From positions 4,203 through 68,202 of the forward strand of contig JAVEXM010000001.1 in the NCBI GenBank assembly GCA_034004025.1: 64,000 nt of DNA, given 5' to 3'. Position numbers and translations under genes: made by a program. The DNA comes from Bacteroidales bacterium (GTDB lineage Bacteria > Bacteroidota > Bacteroidia > Bacteroidales > VadinHA17). Positions 53,171-62,931 of this stretch are shown here, one piece after another (the first letter of the stretch is position 1; each line of letters begins with the position of its first letter). The notes beneath the pieces were generated by a model. The model saw only the letters and a list, made by a program, of their open reading frames with translations. It ran no database searches and was not told the DNA's origin.

Positions 53171-54646
53171 TTATTCCGTTACAATACGCTCGTTATCACC
53201 CAGGTATTCAGTTCTGGGATTTTGATTGTTGAATGATGACATCATTTTATAAACTGCCGGTATCTGCCACGACAGTCGGCTCAGGATATCGGCCGGTATT
53301 GAACTGCGGCTGAAGGGTACCGCTTTGACATATTCCTGCAAATCGCCTGCCTTGCGGCCATATTTGTATTCATAGGTGAATGAACCGTCATCACGCAGTA
53401 CCGCATTCCTGTTCAGGATATTCGGTACGCTGACGTAGAATTCGCTCTCTGCTTTTTCGGAGTTGCTGAGGAGGCCTTTGACTGACAGGTGGTCATAGAG
53501 CTGGTCGGCGACAACCGAAGCCGGGTTGACCAGGATCAGGTCCTCTGCTATCAGTGATCGATAAACATATTCGCCGTTTTCACGGTGGTTCCTCAGCCGT
53601 TCAAACTCCTCCCTGAATGTCTCAAGGAAAAAGGGATAATGGGTGCATGCCAGCACTACCGAGTTAAGAGGCAGGGCGTCAGGGCTGTTCCTGATCTTTT
53701 CCATCAGGCTCACAACATGGAAGGCTATATAGTTCTCCACCGAGTTGATCTGAATGTTTTCCGGAGCTGCAGCGTCACCTTCAAAGAGCATCGCACCGTT
53801 TTCAAGGTCGAAATCGTAACGGTCCCACAACCGGAGATCTATCTTCATCTCACCGGAGCAGGTGTCTGAGGGTCCCCTGTAACCCGGACGGGGTGCGGTG
53901 GCTCTCCTGTCAATAGCCTCTGCGCTCTCATCTATGGCCTCAGCAATGCCTATGCCCGCCTGCTGGAATACCATGATATTCTCTTCCTGTCCGTCGGCTT
54001 TGTTAACCCTGGTGATGCTCGCGGGATAAGCTCCTGACTTCACCGTTCCGTCGGTGGCCATTACAGCGATTGTGCCATTCTCTCCCGGGGAAAAATTTCC
54101 GAAAGCACCCAATGCCCCCGCATCAACCACACCAATGACGCCGATGTCTGATCCGGCCTGAGACAGAAATTGCCTGACGGTGTCGAGACCATATGCGGTT
54201 GCAGTGTTGCATGCAATAACTATTGCCTTGACAGGACTCTTGTCAGTCTCATACCTTCGCGCATCACCTGAGCGGTAGTATTTATTGCCCAGGAGAAACT
54301 GAACATCTTTCATGATATGTTCAATCAGAAGCGGCGTGTTGTTCTCGAGGGCATAGCTTCCGTAGGGCATATTGGCAAGATCGCCGTAGTATATATAAGA
54401 TTCCCTCGCAAGCTCCTCATGGTCAATTATATCAGCCAGAACCGACAGTCCTCCGGTCCCTGAGTCGAAAACCCCGATCGGCAGCGCACTGTTGCCTGAA
54501 GGATAATTCTTAAAGTCGATATGCCAGAAACTGTCAGGGTGGTTCATTATGGCATCCCTGATTCCGCCGGGTTTGTCACACGAGATGAAGATCAGCAGCA
54601 GCAGGGCAATTGGGATGATGCGCTTAAGGAACAGGAATTGTTTCAT
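53171..54646 (-). CDS. Asp/Glu racemase family (glutamate-racemase-like) protein with a lipoprotein-type signal and large insertions
   Basis: 491 aa with N-terminal ..LLLLIFISC DKPG. All four MurI-type motifs are present: GVFDSGTGGLSVL, YYGDLANMPYG, VIACNTAT and LACTHYPF. Confidence 0.7.
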   Translation of the reverse strand: MKQFLFLKRIIPIALLLLIFISCDKPGGIRDAIMNHPDSFWHIDFKNYPSGNSALPIGVFDSGTGGLSVLADIIDHEELARESYIYYGDLANMPYGSYALENNTPLLIEHIMKDVQFLLGNKYYRSGDARRYETDKSPVKAIVIACNTATAYGLDTVRQFLSQAGSDIGVIGVVDAGALGAFGNFSPGENGTIAVMATDGTVKSGAYPASITRVNKADGQEENIMVFQQAGIGIAEAIDESAEAIDRRATAPRPGYRGPSDTCSGEMKIDLRLWDRYDFDLENGAMLFEGDAAAPENIQINSVENYIAFHVVSLMEKIRNSPDALPLNSVVLACTHYPFFLETFREEFERLRNHRENGEYVYRSLIAEDLILVNPASVVADQLYDHLSVKGLLSNSEKAESEFYVSVPNILNRNAVLRDDGSFTYEYKYGRKAGDLQEYVKAVPFSRSSIPADILSRLSWQIPAVYKMMSSFNNQNPRTEYLGDNERIVTE

Positions 54647-54802
54647 GCAGGTCAGGATTTAGGTTAATTCCATTGCATAAATGTAACATCACGGACGGAA
54701 TTTGCAATGCAGAATGCTGTGCAACATTTGCCGGATTATGACGCTTCAAGCATCCCGGATAATAAATTTGTGCCCTGATAAATCTTTGCATTAAAAAATC
54801 AC

Positions 54803-54810
54803 TATTTTTG
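54803..54810 (+). promoter_or_regulatory. Bacteroidota -7 promoter motif (TAnnTTTG) abutting box 1 upstream of arsR
   Basis: TATTTTTG at 54803-54810. Its last base is the first base of the inverted repeat. Confidence 0.5.
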
Positions 54811-54829
54811 TTTCGTCGTTTCCCGAAAT
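54810..54829. promoter_or_regulatory. inverted-repeat box 1 (GTTTCG-N8-CGAAAT), candidate ArsR operator
   Basis: gtttcg tcgtttcc cgaaat, ending 3 nt before the arsR ATG. This is one of three near-identical boxes. Confidence 0.6.
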
Positions 54830-54832
54830 GAA

Positions 54833-55150
54833 ATGGAAGCTAAACAGGCCAGAAAAAAATATTATTCGGATGATCAGGAGAAGCTGGCGGGGTATGCCAA
54901 AGCACTGTCTCACCCGGTGCGGGTATTCGTAATGGATTTTCTGGCAAACAATCTCGACAAATGCTGTTACAGCGGTGATATGGCGGAGGAACTGCCCATT
55001 GCCCGTTCGACCCTGTCGGAACATCTGAAGGAGTTGAAGAAGGCGGGACTGATACAGGGCGAGATCAACCCACCCTATATTAAATACTGCATCAACAGGG
55101 AGAATTGGGACGAGGCAAAATTGTTACTGAATAAATTTTTCAAGCGATAA
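54833..55150 (+). CDS. arsR: ArsR/SmtB family metalloregulatory transcriptional repressor
   Basis: 105 aa with a winged HTH (LSHPVRVFVMDFL...IARSTLSEHLKELKKAGLI). A vicinal Cys pair (DKCCYSGD) sits at the position of the ELCVCDL metal(loid) site. Confidence 0.85.
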   Translation: MEAKQARKKYYSDDQEKLAGYAKALSHPVRVFVMDFLANNLDKCCYSGDMAEELPIARSTLSEHLKELKKAGLIQGEINPPYIKYCINRENWDEAKLLLNKFFKR

Positions 55151-55165
55151 AAAATTTAATATAGT

Positions 55166-55185
55166 ATTTCGGCGTTTTACGAAAT
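55166..55185. promoter_or_regulatory. inverted-repeat box 2 (ATTTCG-N8-CGAAAT), candidate ArsR operator
   Basis: atttcg gcgtttta cgaaat, ending 18 nt before the ATG at 55204. Confidence 0.6.
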
Positions 55186-55203
55186 GAAAGGAGAATAATC
55201 AAT

Positions 55204-55437
55204 ATGGAAATTAAAATCCTGGGGCCCGGGTGCCCCAAATGCAAAACCCTGGAGAAACTGACATACGAAGTGGTTGAACAGAATGGAATAGAGGCGACGG
55301 TCTCCAAGGTAGAGGACATTGTAGCCATAATGAACTACGGTGTCATGACAACCCCGGCCCTTGTGGTCAATGAGAAGGTTGTTCTGAAGGGACGGTTACC
55401 GTCAGCAGAAGAACTTAAGAAGCTACTAACCAACTAA
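55204..55437 (+). CDS. small thioredoxin-fold redox-active disulfide protein (CPKC)
   Basis: 77 aa. MEIKILGPGCPKCKTLE is typical of the 'redox-active disulfide protein 2' type of mini-thioredoxin. Confidence 0.85.
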   Translation: MEIKILGPGCPKCKTLEKLTYEVVEQNGIEATVSKVEDIVAIMNYGVMTTPALVVNEKVVLKGRLPSAEELKKLLTN

Positions 55438-55451
55438 ATAATTGCAGGTTT

Positions 55452-55892
55452 ATGAAAAAGGTAATCTGGATTTCAATAGTTGTTCTGGCTCTCGTTGCCT
55501 TCCTGGCTTTCAGGCCGGGTGGTAAAGCAGATGTCAGTTCTGATGCGGCCGTAACAGCAGCAGACAAGGTGGAAGTAATTTATTTTCACTTCTCACGCAG
55601 ATGCGTAACCTGTATGGCAGTTGAGAACAAGACCCGTGAGGCCATAATGGCGCTTTATCCTGATGAATACAATAAGGGCACGATCACCTTCGCCTCGTTA
55701 AATCTTGAGGATGAAAAGAACAAGCCCGTTGCCGAAAAGGCAAAGGTCACAGGGCAGGCATTGCTCATCATGAGCGGGGAGTTCAGGAAAGACCTTACAG
55801 CCGACGGATTTATGTATGCCAACAACAACTTTGACAGGTGGAAGGCTGAGATCAAAAAGGCAATCGATCCTCTCCTGAAAGAGATTAAATAG
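55452..55892 (+). CDS. membrane-anchored thioredoxin-fold CXXC protein (resembles the family annotated as ArsF-like)
   Basis: 146 aa with an N-terminal TM anchor and a CVTC motif in YFHFSRRCVTCMAVE. The ArsF-family label is from memory of annotation practice and has not been verified. Confidence 0.6.
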   Translation: MKKVIWISIVVLALVAFLAFRPGGKADVSSDAAVTAADKVEVIYFHFSRRCVTCMAVENKTREAIMALYPDEYNKGTITFASLNLEDEKNKPVAEKAKVTGQALLIMSGEFRKDLTADGFMYANNNFDRWKAEIKKAIDPLLKEIK

Positions 55893-55895
55893 TGC

Positions 55896-56597
55896 ATGGA
55901 ACTTCTTCAAAGGCTTCTTGAGAATTCACAGTACTCGTTTATCACGGCGGCAATCCTTGGGCTGATGACTGCCATCAGCCCATGCCCGCTGGCTACCAAT
56001 ATTTCGGCAATAGGTTTTATCAGCCGTGATCTTACTGACCGGAGAAGGGTTTTTCTCAACGGACTCGTTTATACCCTTGGAAGAGCCATAACATATGTCG
56101 GTATTGCGTTGATCATATTCTTTGGCGCCAGCCAGATGGATATCTCCGGCTGGTTCCAGAGATGGGGAGAGAAACTGCTGGGCCCGGTTCTGATTCTGAT
56201 AGGTCTGTTTATGCTCGACATCATAAAACTAAAGCTTCCGGGCGGCATGGGATCATTTACGGAGAAGATAGGGGAGAGGGGCAGAAAGAGTTATCTGAAC
56301 ACCCTGCTTCTTGGAATTCTGTTTGCAATGGCCTTTTGCCCCTACAGCGGAGTTTTGTACTTCGTAATGCTGATACCTATGACAGTAGCCAGTGCTGACG
56401 GACTCTATCTGCCCCTGATCTTTGCAATCGCAACCGGTATTCCTGTGATCATCTTTGCATGGCTTCTGGCCTATGCGGTTGGCAACGTAGGCAAGATGTA
56501 CAGCAGGATCAGGACATTTGAACTCTGGTTCAGAAGAGTTGTGGCGGTACTGTTCATTGGCGTAGGAATCTATTACATTATAATAACCTACCTGTAA
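55896..56597 (+). CDS. CcdA/DsbD-family thiol-disulfide transfer membrane protein (family also annotated as ArsG-like)
   Basis: 233 aa with about 6 TM helices and two membrane-embedded Cys in SPCPL and FCPYS contexts. Confidence 0.75.
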   Translation: MELLQRLLENSQYSFITAAILGLMTAISPCPLATNISAIGFISRDLTDRRRVFLNGLVYTLGRAITYVGIALIIFFGASQMDISGWFQRWGEKLLGPVLILIGLFMLDIIKLKLPGGMGSFTEKIGERGRKSYLNTLLLGILFAMAFCPYSGVLYFVMLIPMTVASADGLYLPLIFAIATGIPVIIFAWLLAYAVGNVGKMYSRIRTFELWFRRVVAVLFIGVGIYYIIITYL

Positions 56598-56613
56598 AAA
56601 AAATTAAAAATGC

Positions 56614-56633
56614 ATTTCGGGTTTTTACGAAAT
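56614..56633. promoter_or_regulatory. inverted-repeat box 3 (ATTTCG-N8-CGAAAT), candidate ArsR operator
   Basis: atttcg ggttttta cgaaat, ending 19 nt before the ATG at 56653. Confidence 0.6.
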
Positions 56634-56652
56634 AAAAATCTTTAAAATAATA

Positions 56653-57996
56653 ATGGAACTCAGGAAAGAACTGAAGATCCTTCTGTGGATCATTGTGGTA
56701 TTTGTATTCGCGTTCTTCATGCCGATTGAAAGCGCCCGTTTCAACACGGCGATTGCTGCGACTTTCGATCTGGTCAGGTGGTATGCCCGGGAACATGTGA
56801 TATTATGCCTCCTGCCGGCATTCTTTATTGCAGGTGTCATCTCGGTATTTGTCAGCCAGGGATCGGTTATCAAATATTTTGGTGCGAATGCGAAGAAGTG
56901 GCTGGCCTATTCTGTGGCTGCCGTTTCCGGTACGATCCTGGCAGTCTGCTCATGTACTATCCTCCCGCTGTTTTCAAGCATCCACAAGCGCGGTGCCGGC
57001 CTCGGCCCGGCAATTGCCTTCCTCTATTCCGGCCCTGCAATCAATATCCTGGCAATCATTCTGACGGCCCGTATCCTGGGGTTTGAGATGGGTGTTGCGC
57101 GAGTCATAGGAGCCGTGGTTTTCAGCGTGGTGATAGGAGTGATAATGTCACTGATCTATCGTAAGGAAGAGCAGCAGAAAAGAGAGGATCAGATGAACAT
57201 AGTTGCTGAGCCGGAGAAAAGGCCTATGTGGCAGACAATGACGCACTTCTTTACCCTTGTCATCATCCTGGTCTTTGCAAACTGGGGCAGCCCGGCTGCT
57301 GACGATACTTCAAGTGCATGGTACTATATCTGGTCCTATAAGTGGTACATCACCGGTTTCTTCAGCCTGGTGCTCGGGTGGTCACTGATCAGGATCCTTA
57401 AGATCAAATGGCACTGGGTTCTGGCCGCAGCGGCAGTAACCGTAATTTCGGTGCTCCTTTCGAACGCCTTCATTGAAAGTGCGAAGCTGAGACCACTGGT
57501 GCCCATGGTTGTGGGGATAGCAGCATTAAGCATTATTACGCTCTTCGATAAGCAGGATGATGAGAACCGTGAGTGGACACTCTCAACATGGGGTTTCGCC
57601 AAACAGATAATGCCCCTCCTTGCAATCGGGGTTGTGATTGCCGGTTTTCTCCTTGGGTCGACCCATGACGGCCAGAGTATCCCCGGGATTATACCGAATG
57701 AATGGATCGCAAAACTCGTTGGCGGCAACTCGGTATTCTCAAACTTCTTTGCATCAATAGTAGGTGCCTTCATGTACTTTGCCACACTCACAGAAGTGCC
57801 GATACTTCAGGGACTGATAGCCTCCGGTATGGGTAAGGGCCCTGCCCTGGCCCTGCTCCTTGCCGGGCCTTCGCTTTCTTTGCCTAATATGTTGGTTATC
57901 AGAGGTATTATTGGAAATCAGAAAACGGCAGTATACGTTGCCCTGGTTGTTGTTATGGCGACAATATCAGGCCTTATGTATGGATCAATCTTTTAA
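56653..57996 (+). CDS. polytopic permease (UPF0718 / ArsP-like permease family)
   Basis: 447 aa, multi-TM, with AVCSCTILPLF (a CxC in a TM helix) as in this permease family. Confidence 0.7.
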   Translation: MELRKELKILLWIIVVFVFAFFMPIESARFNTAIAATFDLVRWYAREHVILCLLPAFFIAGVISVFVSQGSVIKYFGANAKKWLAYSVAAVSGTILAVCSCTILPLFSSIHKRGAGLGPAIAFLYSGPAINILAIILTARILGFEMGVARVIGAVVFSVVIGVIMSLIYRKEEQQKREDQMNIVAEPEKRPMWQTMTHFFTLVIILVFANWGSPAADDTSSAWYYIWSYKWYITGFFSLVLGWSLIRILKIKWHWVLAAAAVTVISVLLSNAFIESAKLRPLVPMVVGIAALSIITLFDKQDDENREWTLSTWGFAKQIMPLLAIGVVIAGFLLGSTHDGQSIPGIIPNEWIAKLVGGNSVFSNFFASIVGAFMYFATLTEVPILQGLIASGMGKGPALALLLAGPSLSLPNMLVIRGIIGNQKTAVYVALVVVMATISGLMYGSIF

Positions 57997-58103
57997 TTTA
58001 ATTACCATCCCGGACAAAAAAGTCCAGGGACCGGGATGCACTCACTGCGCCAGGCTTTAAAAAGTTTTAACTCTTTTGACAGGTCTGTTACATCAGAAGT
58101 AAT

Positions 58104-58111
58104 TACATTTG
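58104..58111 (+). promoter_or_regulatory. Bacteroidota -7 promoter motif (TAnnTTTG) upstream of the His-rich ORF / RND operon
   Basis: TACATTTG at 58104-58111, 17 nt upstream of the TTG at 58128. Confidence 0.45.
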
Positions 58112-58127
58112 CCGAATATATTGATAC

Positions 58128-58508
58128 TTGCGTAAAGGAAGAAAGATAAAGAGCTGGTTATTATTTCTCTGTTGGCTGGTAATATTTGCTCACGGCATTA
58201 TTCCACATAACCATGCGCAGCACAGTCATCTGTTGCTGCACACACATATGCATGCATCTGTGTGCAATCATGACGTGGAGGAGCCTTCCGATGAGTTTCA
58301 GAATAAGTGTGACGATACGCCTGTCTGCAGGATCTCCGGACTGCTGTTCCATCAGCTATCGCAGGATAACCTTCCTCCACCATCAGATGCCCCTGACCTG
58401 ATATCCCCCGCATGGACGAAGGGATCAGCGGTAGTCAATACTGATCAGTTCTTTTACAGGGAACTCCCTCCGGGGTCAGTATCGTTGCGCGCTCCACCGT
58501 CAGCATAA
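58128..58508 (+). CDS. hypothetical membrane-anchored His-rich small protein (TTG start)
   Basis: 126 aa. It has one N-terminal TM helix (WLLFLCWLVIFAHG), then HGIIPHNHAQHSHLLLHTHMHASVCNHD. There is no in-frame ATG near the 5' end. The promoter motif just upstream supports expression. Confidence 0.45.
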   Translation: MRKGRKIKSWLLFLCWLVIFAHGIIPHNHAQHSHLLLHTHMHASVCNHDVEEPSDEFQNKCDDTPVCRISGLLFHQLSQDNLPPPSDAPDLISPAWTKGSAVVNTDQFFYRELPPGSVSLRAPPSA

Positions 58509-58567
58509 TCCGCGACCTGCGGTCTCTTCAATCCATCTTTTTACTGAATTTTTAAATATGCTGACAA

Positions 58568-59830
58568 ATGAAATCCATATTATATATGTTTTTTGTCCTG
58601 CTCCTGGCAGGATTCACCGCATGTGCCCCGAAGTCTGATCCCGGTCATAAATCAGATGAGGAACATGACCATGAGACTGTAACCACCGGTGCCCATGAGG
58701 ATGAACATGACCATGCGACTCTCACCACCGGTGCAGACGGGGATGAACATGACCATGCGACTCTCACCACCGGTGCGGACGGGGATGAATATGACCATAC
58801 AACTCTCGCCACCGGTGCGGATGATCATGAAACTGCGCATTTTGAGATCCTGACTATCACGAGGCAACCATTTTCTTTTGTTTTGAAGACCGGAGGCCGG
58901 ATCATGGCCGATAACCGGGATCTGGTCACGATCACTTCCAAATCATCAGGACTGGTGAAGTTCAGTGAGGATTTTTTACTTCCGGGAGTGAAGGTTGCGC
59001 GAGGAGAGTCGCTCTTTACCGTTGCCGGCGAACAGCTGGCAGATGATAACACGGATCTTAGATTCCGGCAGATCAAGTCTGATCTGGACCGTGCCAGAAT
59101 GAATTTTGAAAGGGCCGAAAAGCTTATTGTCGAAAAGATAATAACAGAAGAACATTACCTTACGGTGAGGAATGAGTATGAAAAGATTCGTAGCGAGTAT
59201 GATAATATTGCGGCCACATACAGTACGGGTGGGAGCAGGATAATCGCGCCGGCTGATGGCTACATTCGCGACATTCATGTTGCCGAGGGTCAGAAGGTCA
59301 CTGCAGGTCAGCCTCTGGCAACGGTGATATCAGGGCGCAGGCTTGTTCTCAGGGCTGATGTCAGGCCCGATGACCTCTCCACCGTTACATCAGTGGTGAG
59401 TGCCAATTTCCGGGTTGGGTACAGTGACAAAATATTCAAAACCGTTGATATGAACGGCCGTAAGATATCCTACGGCAAGAGTACGGGTGAGAGTTCTTTC
59501 TTAATCCCTGTCTACTTCAGTATTGATTATGACCCGGAGCTTATCGAGGGGACATATGCTGAGGTTTATCTCATCGGCAGACAGACAACTGATGCCTTGA
59601 CGGTCCCTGACAGTGCGCTTATGGAGGAGTTCGGAAGACTCTACGTGTTTGTGGAGCATGAAGATGGCGATTTTGGCAAGAGGTACATCACCGCCGGCTA
59701 CAGTGACGGGGAAAAGACCCTGGTGCTTTCAGGGCTTACTGAGGGTGAACGTATAGTTGCTTCAGACACTTACCTGGTCAAGTTGTCTCAGATGTCTTCC
59801 TCTGCGCCGGCACACAGTCACACCCATTAA
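58568..59830 (+). CDS. efflux RND transporter periplasmic adaptor (membrane fusion) lipoprotein with a His/Asp-rich N-terminal repeat
   Basis: 420 aa with the lipobox LLAGFTAC. The coiled-coil/barrel-sandwich body is typical of CzcB/CusB-like adaptors, and it is followed by a CzcA/CusA-type gene. Confidence 0.85.
   Translation: MKSILYMFFVLLLAGFTACAPKSDPGHKSDEEHDHETVTTGAHEDEHDHATLTTGADGDEHDHATLTTGADGDEYDHTTLATGADDHETAHFEILTITRQPFSFVLKTGGRIMADNRDLVTITSKSSGLVKFSEDFLLPGVKVARGESLFTVAGEQLADDNTDLRFRQIKSDLDRARMNFERAEKLIVEKIITEEHYLTVRNEYEKIRSEYDNIAATYSTGGSRIIAPADGYIRDIHVAEGQKVTAGQPLATVISGRRLVLRADVRPDDLSTVTSVVSANFRVGYSDKIFKTVDMNGRKISYGKSTGESSFLIPVYFSIDYDPELIEGTYAEVYLIGRQTTDALTVPDSALMEEFGRLYVFVEHEDGDFGKRYITAGYSDGEKTLVLSGLTEGERIVASDTYLVKLSQMSSSAPAHSHTH
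58655..58822 (+). repeat. in-frame 42-bp x4 tandem repeat encoding (D/G)(D/E)EHDH(A/E)T(L/V)TTGA(D/H)
   Basis: Units are DEEHDHETVTTGAH, EDEHDHATLTTGAD, GDEHDHATLTTGAD and GDEYDHTTLATGAD (aa 30-85 of the adaptor). Confidence 0.9.
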
Positions 59831-59841
59831 TCTGATTGACA

Positions 59842-62800
59842 ATGCTTGATAAAATAATTGACTTTTCCTTAAGGAACAGGCTGAGCATCGTTATAGGAGC
59901 TCTTCTGCTGATCATAACCGGTACTGTAGTCACAACCCGGATGGAGATCGATATCTTCCCCGAGCTGACGGCCCCCACTGTTGTAGTAATGACCGAGGCC
60001 AGCGGTATGGCACCGGAAGAGGTTGAAACACTGGTCTCATTCCCTATAGAAACGGCAGTCAACGGAGCAACTTCTATAAGGCGTGTAAGATCTACGTCAA
60101 CAATGGGTTTTTCGATTGTATTCGTCGAATTCGACTGGGGGACGGATATCTACAAAGCACGGCAGACAGTGGCAGAACGCCTTATCCAGGCAAACGCCAA
60201 ACTGCCTGAAGGGATTGAAAAGCCGGTCATTGCCCCGCAGACATCACTTCTGGGTGAGATGATGATCATTGCACTTGAATCGGATACGCTGACTCCCATG
60301 GAGCTCAGAACGATGGCTGACTGGACCGTGGCACCCAGACTGCTTGCAGTCGGAGGAGTGGCACAGGTAAATGTGATTGGCGGGGATATAAAGGAATATC
60401 AGATCCTTGCAGATCCCCTAAAGATGGATTTCTTCGGAGTAACCATGAGTGAACTGGTTGAGGCTAGCAAAGGGCTGAATACCAACACTTCAGGGTCATT
60501 CATCAATCAATACGGCAACAAGTATATCGTCAGAGGCATGGCGAGAAGCGACCGGCTTTCCGATCTGGCTAATTCGGTCATTAAAGTGTCGGGAAGCACG
60601 CCTGTCAGAATAGGTGACATCGCTTCAGTTGAAATCGGCAGTGCTCCTGCTATAGGAACGGCATCTTACCGCGGAAGAAGTGCAGTGCTGTTGACGGTTA
60701 CAAGACAGCCTGATGCAAACACCGTGGCCCTGGCCGACAATATTGGTGCAGTTATCAATGACATACAGTCCAATGCAGGCTCATCGGTCACTTTTCACGA
60801 TGATATATACAACCAGGCAGAATTCATTAATACCTCCGTCAGGAATGTGCTGAAGGCGCTGCTTGAAGGCGGAATATTCGTGGTAATCATTCTGTTTCTT
60901 TTCCTCTTCAATGTCAGGACTACCGTCATCTCTCTTCTTGCAATGCCGCTGTCGCTTCTTGTGGCCGTTATCACCCTTAAAGCTCTTGGCTATACGGTTA
61001 ATACAATGAGTCTTGGCGGTATGGCCATAGCGATCGGGTCATTGGTTGATGACGCGATCATTGACGTTGAGAACATATACAGGCAACTGCGCAAAAACGT
61101 TCTTTTACCTCCGGAAAAAAGGGAGCCAACAACAAGGGTTGTTTTCAGGGCATCATCTGAAGTAAGATCGTCAATCTGGAATGCCACGCTTATTATCATC
61201 ATTACATTTGTTCCGCTGTTTTTCCTTGGTGATCTTGAGGGAAGAATGCTGAGACCGCTGGGGATTTCCTTCATTGTATCTTTGTTTGCCTCGCTTATTG
61301 TTGCTGTCACTCTGACGCCGGTATTGAGCAGTTATTTTCTCACTGATGAAAAACGACTTCTGCGGGCAGTGAACGGCTCGTGGACTGAAAGGAATCTGGG
61401 CAGAATCTACCGCAGGGCACTTCAATTCACCTTAAACAGAAGCAGATGGCTGATAGGACTGACGGCAGCCCTCTTCCTGATATCCGTTTTGATGCTTTCA
61501 AGAGCAGGAAGTTCCTTTCTCCCAAACTTCAATGAGGGGGCGCTGACTGTAAACATATCACTCACTCCCGGCGTATCGCTGGAGGAGTCGGCCAGGATAG
61601 GCGTCAGGGCACAGGAAATATTGCTCGGTATTCCCGAAGTCACCACCGTAGCCTGCAAGACGGGGAGGGCCGAACTGGCCGAGCATTTCTTCGGTGAGAA
61701 TATGTCCGAACTGGATGTTCCCTTTGTGCTTGCCGACAGAAGCAGGGAGGAGTTTTTTGCAGATGTCCGTGAGAGACTCCGGCAAATACCCGGTGCAAGC
61801 ATAGAAGTCGGACAGCCCATAACCCACAGGATGGACAGGATGCTGTCAGGTACCAAGGCTAACATTGCCATCAAGCTTTTCGGAGATGATCTTAACGATC
61901 TTTACTCAACGGCAAACCTCATTAAATCTGAAATTGAAGATATTCCCGGAATAGGCGACCTGAACGTGGAGCAACTGATTGAAACGCCGCAGCTGAAAAT
62001 AAAACCTCGCCGGGAGATGCTTGCAAACTACGGCATTGACATGAACAGCTTTAACTCTTATATAACCTATGCTATAGGGGGACAGGCTGTATCCGATGTT
62101 TATGAAGAGGAGAGGCGGTTCCCGATAGTTGTCAGGCTGGATGATGAATACAGGGGCACAATGGAAGGTATCCGCAGCTCACTCATCGATACTCATGACG
62201 GCAGGAAAGTGCCACTGTCATCTGTTGCCGATATAGAATCCTCATCGGGACCCTCTTCAATCAACCGTGAGAATGTAAAGCGGAGGATCGTCATCTCGGT
62301 CAATACTGACGGGCGCGACGTAGGCAGTGTGGTTCGGGATATCAGGGAGAGGATAAACGAAGAGGTAACGCTGCCCCGGAATTACCACATTGAGTACGGC
62401 GGACAGTTTGAAAGCGCAGAAAATGCCGCCAGACGACTGTTGGCAACATCGGTGATCGCACTTCTCGTCATATTTTTGATCCTTTACCAGGAGTTTAAGA
62501 ACAGTTCCCTGGCTCTGATTGTGCTCCTGAACCTTCCGCTGGCCCTTATTGGCGGGATAATTGCCATTAAGCTCTCGTCCAATGTTGTGAGTATACCCTC
62601 AATTATCGGATTCATCACACTTTTCGGCATCGCTACCAGGAACGGCATACTGTTGATCTCAAGATATATTCACCTCAAGCAGGAGGGGAGGACTCTTCGT
62701 GAACGGATTATTTCCGGGTCGACTGACAGGCTCAACGCGATACTGATGACAGCCCTGACAGCGGCGCTGGCCCTTATACCCCTTGCCATTGGAGGAGACA

Positions 62801-62931
62801 GGCCGGGTAATGAGATACAGAGCCCGATGGCCATCGTGATTCTCGGAGGACTGCTCAGCTCAACACTGCTGAATGTTTTCATAATTCCTTCAGCCTATTA
62901 TCTAATTGAAAAAAGAGACAGAAATGATTAA
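59842..62931 (+). CDS. CusA/CzcA family heavy-metal efflux RND transporter
   Basis: About 1029 aa. The N-terminal MLDKIIDFSLRNRLSIVIGALLL is typical, it has 12 TM helices and two large periplasmic loops, and it sits in adaptor-pump-OMF gene order. Confidence 0.9.
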   Translation: MLDKIIDFSLRNRLSIVIGALLLIITGTVVTTRMEIDIFPELTAPTVVVMTEASGMAPEEVETLVSFPIETAVNGATSIRRVRSTSTMGFSIVFVEFDWGTDIYKARQTVAERLIQANAKLPEGIEKPVIAPQTSLLGEMMIIALESDTLTPMELRTMADWTVAPRLLAVGGVAQVNVIGGDIKEYQILADPLKMDFFGVTMSELVEASKGLNTNTSGSFINQYGNKYIVRGMARSDRLSDLANSVIKVSGSTPVRIGDIASVEIGSAPAIGTASYRGRSAVLLTVTRQPDANTVALADNIGAVINDIQSNAGSSVTFHDDIYNQAEFINTSVRNVLKALLEGGIFVVIILFLFLFNVRTTVISLLAMPLSLLVAVITLKALGYTVNTMSLGGMAIAIGSLVDDAIIDVENIYRQLRKNVLLPPEKREPTTRVVFRASSEVRSSIWNATLIIIITFVPLFFLGDLEGRMLRPLGISFIVSLFASLIVAVTLTPVLSSYFLTDEKRLLRAVNGSWTERNLGRIYRRALQFTLNRSRWLIGLTAALFLISVLMLSRAGSSFLPNFNEGALTVNISLTPGVSLEESARIGVRAQEILLGIPEVTTVACKTGRAELAEHFFGENMSELDVPFVLADRSREEFFADVRERLRQIPGASIEVGQPITHRMDRMLSGTKANIAIKLFGDDLNDLYSTANLIKSEIEDIPGIGDLNVEQLIETPQLKIKPRREMLANYGIDMNSFNSYITYAIGGQAVSDVYEEERRFPIVVRLDDEYRGTMEGIRSSLIDTHDGRKVPLSSVADIESSSGPSSINRENVKRRIVISVNTDGRDVGSVVRDIRERINEEVTLPRNYHIEYGGQFESAENAARRLLATSVIALLVIFLILYQEFKNSSLALIVLLNLPLALIGGIIAIKLSSNVVSIPSIIGFITLFGIATRNGILLISRYIHLKQEGRTLRERIISGSTDRLNAILMTALTAALALIPLAIGGDRPGNEIQSPMAIVILGGLLSSTLLNVFIIPSAYYLIEKRDRND

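Follow-up and report, generated by a model that had tools for sequence, protein, structure and literature searches.

A palindromic ATTTCG-N8-CGAAAT box, present three times in a Bacteroidales arsR-arsE-arsF-arsG-arsP cluster, as the predicted operator of the adjacent ArsR-family repressor

Which molecule recognizes a palindromic box that occurs three times within a single ars gene cluster, and is the box read as DNA or as RNA? This question is raised by a 64,000-nucleotide stretch of a Bacteroidales genome (GenBank assembly GCA_034004025.1, contig JAVEXM010000001.1, positions 4,203 to 68,202 of the forward strand), referred to here as the window, in which the genes arsR-arsE-arsF-arsG-arsP are accompanied by three copies of ATTTCG-N8-CGAAAT. 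A preliminary description of the sequence had interpreted the boxes as operators of the adjacent ArsR/SmtB repressor that define three transcription units or, alternatively, as RNA hairpins. The comparative analysis presented in this study makes it quite probable that the boxes serve as DNA operators and that the ArsR-family repressor encoded next to them binds them as a dimer. The three copies, for which no strand is assigned, are the following:

54810-54829, no strand assigned: box 1, predicted operator O1, gtttcg-tcgtttcc-cgaaat, with the core TTTCG-N8-CGAAA at 54811-54828
55166-55185, no strand assigned: box 2, predicted operator O2 in the arsR-arsE gap, atttcg-gcgtttta-cgaaat, with the core at 55167-55184
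56614-56633, no strand assigned: box 3, predicted operator O3 in the arsG-arsP gap, atttcg-ggttttta-cgaaat, with the core at 56615-56632

Both a direct read-out of the sequence and a pattern search confirmed these positions and the earlier remark that the window holds no other copy. When ATTTCG-N8-CGAAAT was searched for with at most one mismatch, exactly three sites were found in the 64-kb window against 0.16 expected, and none of 100 dinucleotide-preserving shuffles of the window reached that number. There was no enrichment when the core was allowed two mismatches (20 sites found in the window, 23.1 expected), and it therefore appears that the window has three true copies and no degenerate ones. 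All three boxes are located in non-coding gaps within one co-directional five-gene cluster, where they end 3, 18 and 19 nucleotides (nt) before the ATG codons at 54833, 55204 and 56653, respectively. Two other kinds of element were considered and rejected. An intrinsic terminator is not compatible with stems that are weak, have only two G-C pairs and are followed by A-rich sequence, and a terminator scan gave no site at any of the three boxes. A repeat element of the repetitive extragenic palindromic (REP) or miniature inverted-repeat transposable element (MITE) type does not fit either, as the shared part is only about 22 bp long and the flanks differ.

Related loci were fetched through alignment of ArsR homologues. 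The resulting set comprises 80 loci from different Genome Taxonomy Database (GTDB) species, all of them Bacteroidales/Bacteroidia metagenome-assembled genomes (MAGs), with ArsR proteins 77-98% identical to that of the window and a total length of 735 kb. Sites were assigned to class 1 (before arsR), class 2 (arsR-arsE gap) or class 3 (arsG-arsP gap), the gene order arsR-arsE-arsF-arsG-arsP being kept in nearly all loci. The core TTTCG-N8-CGAAA was found 0-9 nt before the arsR start in 80 of the 80 loci, which makes O1 universal across the set. Of the 64 loci whose arsR-arsE gap measures at least 30 nt, 50 carry a box there, in most cases 15-21 nt upstream of the arsE ATG, whereas all 13 loci with a gap shorter than 30 nt lack it. 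Similarly, 54 of the 63 loci with an arsG-arsP gap of at least 30 nt carry a box in it. Base composition alone would predict about 0.8 exact cores in the 735 kb; 178 were counted, and 175 of them occupy the three fixed positions of the same operon, with only three elsewhere. On metagenomic contigs, the box is still present with ArsR homologues of 56-69% identity.

Position-specific counts yielded the extended consensus yATTTCG-N8-CGAAATr. Hardly any variation is seen at the ten arm positions: in 156 distinct sites, the two arms keep their absolute sequence, and the flanks show symmetry as well (Y/A on the left, T/R on the right). The CG steps at box positions 4-5 and 14-15 are also invariant, and because they lie 10 bp (one helical turn) apart in a site with two-fold symmetry, this arrangement would suit a winged-helix dimer. 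In the spacer, the two central positions (9-10) are A/T in 155 of the 156 distinct sites, in either orientation, and the rest is variable. The T-rich spacer that had been pointed out earlier is thus a property of the window boxes that does not hold across relatives, where only the A/T character of the two central positions is constrained. A-rich spacers, for example TCAAATCC and GGAAAATA, are found at the same position in several lineages, and the orientation of the spacer flips between lineages and is uncoordinated among the boxes of one locus. SmtB/CzrA operators of the 12-2-12 type and NolR operators are two-fold symmetric sites with A/T-rich centres, each bound by a winged-helix dimer that places its recognition helices in successive major grooves. 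The box shares the symmetry and the A/T centre with these operators, but its half-sites TTTCG/CGAAA differ and do not conform to the SmtB/CzrA half-site consensus, which is of the TGAA...TTCA type.

The position of box 1 relative to the arsR promoter is equally constrained. Box 1 had been described as abutting a -7 promoter motif, and it does so closely enough that the two share a base, the last G of the element being the first base of the box:

54803-54810, + strand: -7 promoter element TATTTTTG of the arsR promoter, Bacteroidetes sigma-ABfr type TAnnTTTG, recognized from the sequence and from its presence in 73 of the 80 loci

In those 73 loci TAnnTTTG ends at the base directly before the box 1 core, and at least five of the six informative positions are matched in 78 of the 80. 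According to the numbering used for Flavobacterium johnsoniae (T-12 A-11 T-8 T-7 T-6 G-5; PMC6847099), which puts the final G at -5, transcription of arsR is predicted to start at about 54815. This is box position 5, the G of TTTCG, and the left arm of box 1 would consequently lie outside the RNA. The predicted arsR leader of 18 nt is close to the usual length of Bacteroides leaders (mode 23 nt; PMC7366714), and O1 would overlap about -4 to +14 of the predicted promoter. The fact that box 1 starts with G and not with A is accounted for by this base doubling as G-5 of the -7 element. A sigma-70 promoter scan was uninformative here, since Bacteroidetes promoters are outside its coverage.

The candidate reader of the boxes is the product of the gene that follows box 1:

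54833-55150, + strand: arsR-like gene encoding a 105-amino acid (aa) winged-helix regulator of the ArsR/SmtB family (Pfam HTH_5, 35.7 bits, cut-off 22)

Against the NCBIfam model NF033788 this protein scores 48 bits, which is under the cut-off of 55. Its distant relatives in the Protein Data Bank (PDB) are CmtR, AfArsR, BigR and NolR (E-values 3e-5 to 8e-3), the NolR structures 4omy, 4omz and 4on0 being among these sequence relatives, and it is distant from the solved ArsR structures (E-values of 1e-4 or weaker). In aligned homologues Cys45 and Cys86 are invariant and Cys44 is nearly so. Many database entries start this ArsR further upstream, which results in forms of 117-137 aa (window 54779-54832; homologues P0004, P0005, P0008 and others). 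The upstream start is located 5' of the conserved -7 element and box. These long forms look like start-codon miscalls, because conservation begins at the start of the 105-aa form (MEAKQ...).

Several of the loci encode a second and more canonical ArsR paralogue, 36-46% identical to the window ArsR, which carries a CISGD motif and a C-terminal CC and has TTVNQHL in the recognition helix where the ArsR studied here has STLSEHL. A palindrome of its own, ACGTA-N4-TACGT, precedes the gene of this paralogue, usually in two copies about 16 nt apart:

L052:9056-9155, L057:9181-9280, L061:7282-7381, L063:8244-8343 and L036:9529-9628 (minus strand): palindromes of the paralogous ArsR

This palindrome has the same CG-N8-CG geometry as the box, with different flanks. 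Two paralogues with related but distinct palindromes are the pattern to be expected if each of them reads its own operator.

It could be argued that the boxes are DNA sites of another regulator, either a global one or a second arsenic-responsive factor, and that arsR is merely one of its targets. The second ArsR paralogue is indeed frequent in these genomes, and on one metagenomic contig a box (TTTCGGTCATCAACGAAA, L093:8710-8727) is found 6 nt upstream of an ArsR that is of the classical CVC type and belongs to another subfamily, a single case that may be due to chance. This alternative nevertheless appears quite improbable. The box stands directly before the arsR of this clade in all loci and persists down to 56% ArsR identity, and in the window and the 735 kb taken together its occurrence is nearly confined to this operon and to places upstream of other arsenic genes. 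Moreover, the paralogous ArsR has its own distinct palindrome at its own gene, and a two-fold symmetric site in which 10 bp separate the CG steps is suited to a winged-helix dimer. The universal presence of the box before arsR, its invariant arms, its fusion with the -7 element and the paralogue's own palindrome thus provide strong comparative support for the adjacent ArsR/SmtB repressor as the probable reader of the boxes, as was first suggested in the preliminary description.

The predicted regulon may extend beyond the five-gene operon. At L029:9106-9135 and L018:8705-8734, a perfect -7 element (TATATTTG and TAAATTTG) lies 4 nt downstream of an extra box, which precedes a rhodanese-domain gene. 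In L018 an LMWPc-type arsC comes next, and in L029 the extra box lies in a divergent intergenic region. A further box, at L048:4763-4780, is placed in the divergent gap before an ACR3/SBF fragment. Extra boxes before other arsenic-related genes suggest that the regulon is wider in some species. A metagenome-wide scan for the exact pattern TTTCG-N8-CGAAATGAA returned 120 stretches, of which 115 were chance matches in unrelated coding sequence with G/C-rich spacers; ars homologues were found on only 5 of the 120, and the scan says little about the regulon.

The other possibility put forward for the boxes was that they function as RNA hairpins, with a 6-7 bp stem and an 8-nt loop, in leader or intercistronic mRNA, affecting the processing, stability or translation of the next cistron. 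The window copies can fold, with modest predicted free energies (dG) of -3.0 to -4.2 kcal/mol, and O2 and O3 would lie in the transcript if the operon were one mRNA. The place of the boxes is fairly constant, not only before arsE but also before arsP (17-25 nt in most loci), the boxes are preceded by an AU-rich tract, and most sites of classes 2 and 3 have a T-rich spacer when read on the coding strand. In addition, initiation of translation in Bacteroidetes is tuned by structure in the initiation region (PMC6847099), and in Bacillus sp. CDB3 an intercistronic inverted repeat forming a hairpin modulates the ars1 operon by lowering the expression of the distal genes (PMC4562236).

An RNA function of this kind finds little echo in the way the sites have diverged. 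In a covariation alignment of 94 distinct class-2 and class-3 sites with a 7-pair stem, the score was 0.104 compared to a shuffled mean of 0.115, and 439 of 500 shuffles scored at least as high. One pair did present 3 double changes, a result matched in 32 of the 500 shuffles. Single-arm changes, of which there were 10 among 188 sites, were in no case compensated in the other arm, and the stem does not extend into the spacer, where complementarity was at or below the independence expectation at every pair. A purely structural hairpin would not need the fixed arm sequence described above, and the flipping of spacer orientation between lineages speaks against it as well. Neither the left arm of box 1, which is upstream of the predicted start, nor the extra boxes of L029 and L018 can easily be accommodated in an RNA model; the latter are wholly upstream of perfect -7 elements, so that they would not be transcribed at all. 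An Rfam search of 54400-58600 gave no match at E-values up to 1. The CDB3 element itself works as an RNA or terminator-like hairpin, unlike the boxes described here, which are without covariation, have fixed arms and occupy, in some cases, positions predicted to be untranscribed. This set of evidence favours a DNA operator over an RNA hairpin, and we regard the hairpin as very improbable.

If the boxes are indeed operators of the adjacent ArsR, the next issue is whether they delimit three transcription units. Only the first half of this earlier proposal gained support from the comparison. The three units are not established, because boxes 2 and 3 are without a canonical -7 element and have only a tract of the form A5-6TTTR. 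The canonical TAnnTTTG was found near none of 49 box 2 sites and near one of 57 box 3 sites, and no canonical -7 element was found downstream of boxes 2 and 3 in the arrangement of L029 and L018. The corresponding tracts of the window are:

55149-55158, + strand: AAAAAATTTA, a conserved A-tract/TTT element whose end lies 9 nt upstream of the core of box 2
56596-56606, + strand: A/T tract AAAAAAAATTA, the window variant of A5-6TTTR, at a conserved position upstream of box 3

This A5-6TTT(A/G) tract begins at or just past the stop codon of the upstream gene. In class 2 it has A at -18 to -13, TTT at -12 to -10 and a purine at -9 in 43-46 of 46 sites, and its spacing to the box is 9 nt in 39 of 46. 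In class 3, T is found at -11 in 52 of 55 sites, T at -10 in 55 of 55 and a purine at -9 in 54 of 55. The tract matches four to five of the six informative -7 positions, with at least five matched in 6 of 49 class-2 and 11 of 57 class-3 sites. Its role might be that of a degenerate -7 element or of an A/T tract associated with the operator. As an A-tract lies at matching distance from box 1 too, it may belong to the operator and not to a promoter.

Three ArsR-repressed transcription units would result if A5-6TTTR functioned as a weak, non-consensus -7 element with transcription beginning some 4 nt upstream of boxes 2 and 3, and we entertain this idea tentatively. Strong conservation of the tract, its fixed distance from the box and its match to most of the informative -7 positions favour this idea. 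Box-plus-gene modules seem, in addition, to be shuffled among loci: arsR is directly followed by arsP in L076, arsE comes first in L105, and L018 and L029 have a box-rhodanese-arsC arrangement. A divergent intergenic region of L048 must contain a promoter, and its sole -7-like element is AAAATTTG. On the other hand, T-12 and G-5 are nearly invariant in real promoters (PMC6847099) but are replaced by A at most tract sites, and canonical elements are as scarce as stated above. The gaps are only about 53 nt long in a cluster of five tightly packed, co-directional genes, and loci in which arsR and arsE abut have no box 2 at all.

Returning to the boxes as operators of the adjacent ArsR, several points weigh against this reading. 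The assignment of the box to ArsR rests on co-occurrence, and this co-occurrence is partly by design, because the 80 loci were gathered through ArsR homology. In classes 2 and 3 the spacer tends to be T-rich on the coding strand, which might point to an RNA role tied to one strand but can also be due to shared descent. O2 is missing in 14 of the 64 and O3 in 9 of the 63 loci that have room for them, from which it follows that O2 and O3 are dispensable. Boxes 2 and 3 lack canonical -7 elements, and the strictly positioned A5-6TTTR before O2 and O3 is unexplained by a simple symmetric operator.

The genes that the repressor would control, previously listed only as CXXC-protein genes and a permease gene, could be named arsE, arsF, arsG and arsP by means of their Pfam and NCBIfam profile scores:

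55204-55437, + strand: arsE, MTH895/ArsE-family thioredoxin-like CXXC protein (Pfam Thioredoxin_3, 102 bits; NCBIfam TIGR00412, 117 bits, cut-off 62)
55452-55892, + strand: arsF-family gene, CXXC protein whose N-terminal part includes a hydrophobic segment (NCBIfam NF040494, 98.8 bits, cut-off 60)
55896-56597, + strand: arsG, DsbD_2-type membrane protein (NCBIfam equivalog NF040495, 304 bits, cut-off 200; Pfam DsbD_2)
56653-57996, + strand: arsP-type permease of the ArsP_1 family with the CSC motif AVCSCTILP (Pfam PF03773, 247.8 bits, cut-off 32.3)

A Pfam search with the arsF-family product gave no match. The NCBIfam name of NF040495, the model matched by arsG, is aromatic aminobenzylarsenical efflux permease. 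ArsG and ArsP are organoarsenical efflux transporters, and ArsE and ArsF are further ars gene products (PMC9144182). The arrangement of arsEFG-arsP behind arsR thus points to a putative organoarsenical-detoxification module. A set of arsEFG genes from Shewanella putrefaciens was reportedly described by Chen, Zhang and Rosen in 2019 (cited in PMC9144182). The window cluster resembles the combination of that set with the ArsP methylarsenite permease, in that its three middle genes score above the ArsE, ArsF and ArsG cut-offs of NCBIfam and its last gene belongs to ArsP_1, the functions being assigned by profile score only.

A mechanism can be proposed in which ArsR, bound at O1 right after the -7 element, would block initiation of the arsR-arsE-arsF-arsG-arsP operon. 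O2 and O3, inside the operon, would hold the structural genes off while the autoregulated arsR would still yield some repressor, and they might do so either as roadblock or auxiliary operators, stopping elongating polymerase that arrives from the arsR promoter or from further upstream, or by repression of weak internal promoters. As regards looping between O1 and O2, their spacing varies from 351 to 361 bp in most loci, which means that the two sites are not helically phased. A trivalent arsenical would be expected to bind the thiols of Cys44/Cys45, and possibly Cys86, upon which ArsR would leave all sites. The arsEFG and arsP cargo suggests that this inducer is probably an organoarsenical, possibly in addition to As(III). 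The motif with its conservation and positions, the overlap of O1 with the promoter and the lack of RNA-type covariation are seen in the sequences themselves; the binding protein, its inducer and the way in which O2 and O3 act are inferred. A more specific version would have O2 and O3 as promoter-less, inducer-released roadblocks that uncouple arsR from arsEFG/arsP, operated by an uncharacterised Bacteroidia ArsR clade with a vicinal Cys44-Cys45 (+Cys86) sensor tuned to organoarsenicals; this version we regard as less likely than not.

How does this arrangement compare to the known systems? In E. coli, the ars operons of R773 and of the chromosome have arsR as first gene, ArsR is autoregulated through an operator at its own promoter, and a trivalent arsenical relieves the repression (PMC3918153). 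As with the E. coli ArsR binding site (ABS), the window has the gene of an ArsR-family repressor first in the operon and a predicted operator at its own promoter. However, the E. coli site is imperfect and lies upstream of the promoter (PMC3918153), whereas the box is a near-perfect palindrome directly downstream of a Bacteroidetes -7 element. The sequences of the two sites are unrelated, and there are three operator copies per operon here compared to one in E. coli. An engineered precedent for the internal sites exists in arsenic bioreporters, in which background expression is reduced by a second ArsR binding site inserted downstream of arsR (Stocker et al. 2003, cited in PMC3918153). O2 occupies the position of this engineered site, with arsR staying under feedback control. 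The engineered site is synthetic and was used in E. coli, whereas O2 is natural, present in 50 of the 64 species with an arsR-arsE gap and repeated before arsP, its roadblock role being putative and argued by analogy.

Full-text literature searches for TTTCG-N8-CGAAA together with ArsR returned nothing relevant, and no description of a regulator and operator for the Bacteroidia version of arsEFG was found in the literature searched. Judged from sequence, the boxes are most likely operators of the classical autoregulated ArsR kind, with a motif that is apparently undescribed and with two within-operon sites that are unusual. The consensus yATTTCG-N8-CGAAATr would represent a precise predicted operator for a widespread and unstudied ArsR clade of anaerobic Bacteroidia. 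Through it, the clade would be linked to arsR-arsEFG-arsP and, in certain species, also to rhodanese-arsC and ACR3. The motif may be used for the prediction of arsenic regulons in Bacteroidales genomes and MAGs, to correct start-codon calls of arsR, and to guide the construction of organoarsenical biosensors for Bacteroidetes chassis. If O2 and O3 did act as roadblocks, the operon would provide a natural instance of a principle of design that has so far been encountered mainly in synthetic ArsR circuits.

Some minor observations concern the gaps and the surroundings of the cluster. Among loci without boxes 2 and 3, tandem CATTAGCG units fill the intergenic gaps in L051 (5313-5403), and long inverted repeats from GCTAAT/ATTAGC are found in the gaps of L063 (5307-5418 and 6971-7080). 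A second Thioredoxin_3 gene follows arsP in L012 (8175-8423), L018 (8174-8682) and L023 (8183-8425), and in L018 it is followed in turn by a gene for a CMD/AhpD-like CXXC protein. The window has neither of these two genes. A heavy-metal-type efflux pair (58568-59830 and 59836-62931) comes directly after the cluster, preceded by a His-rich open reading frame (ORF) of 126 aa at 58128-58508; no box is present at the His-rich ORF or at the genes of the efflux pair. The pair consists of an HlyD/CusB-like membrane-fusion protein and a large membrane protein of 1031 aa that, by resemblance, may be a resistance-nodulation-division (RND) pump. The HlyD/CusB-like protein carries N-terminal tandem repeats rich in His and Asp (HEDEHDHATLTTGADGDEHDH..., three copies).

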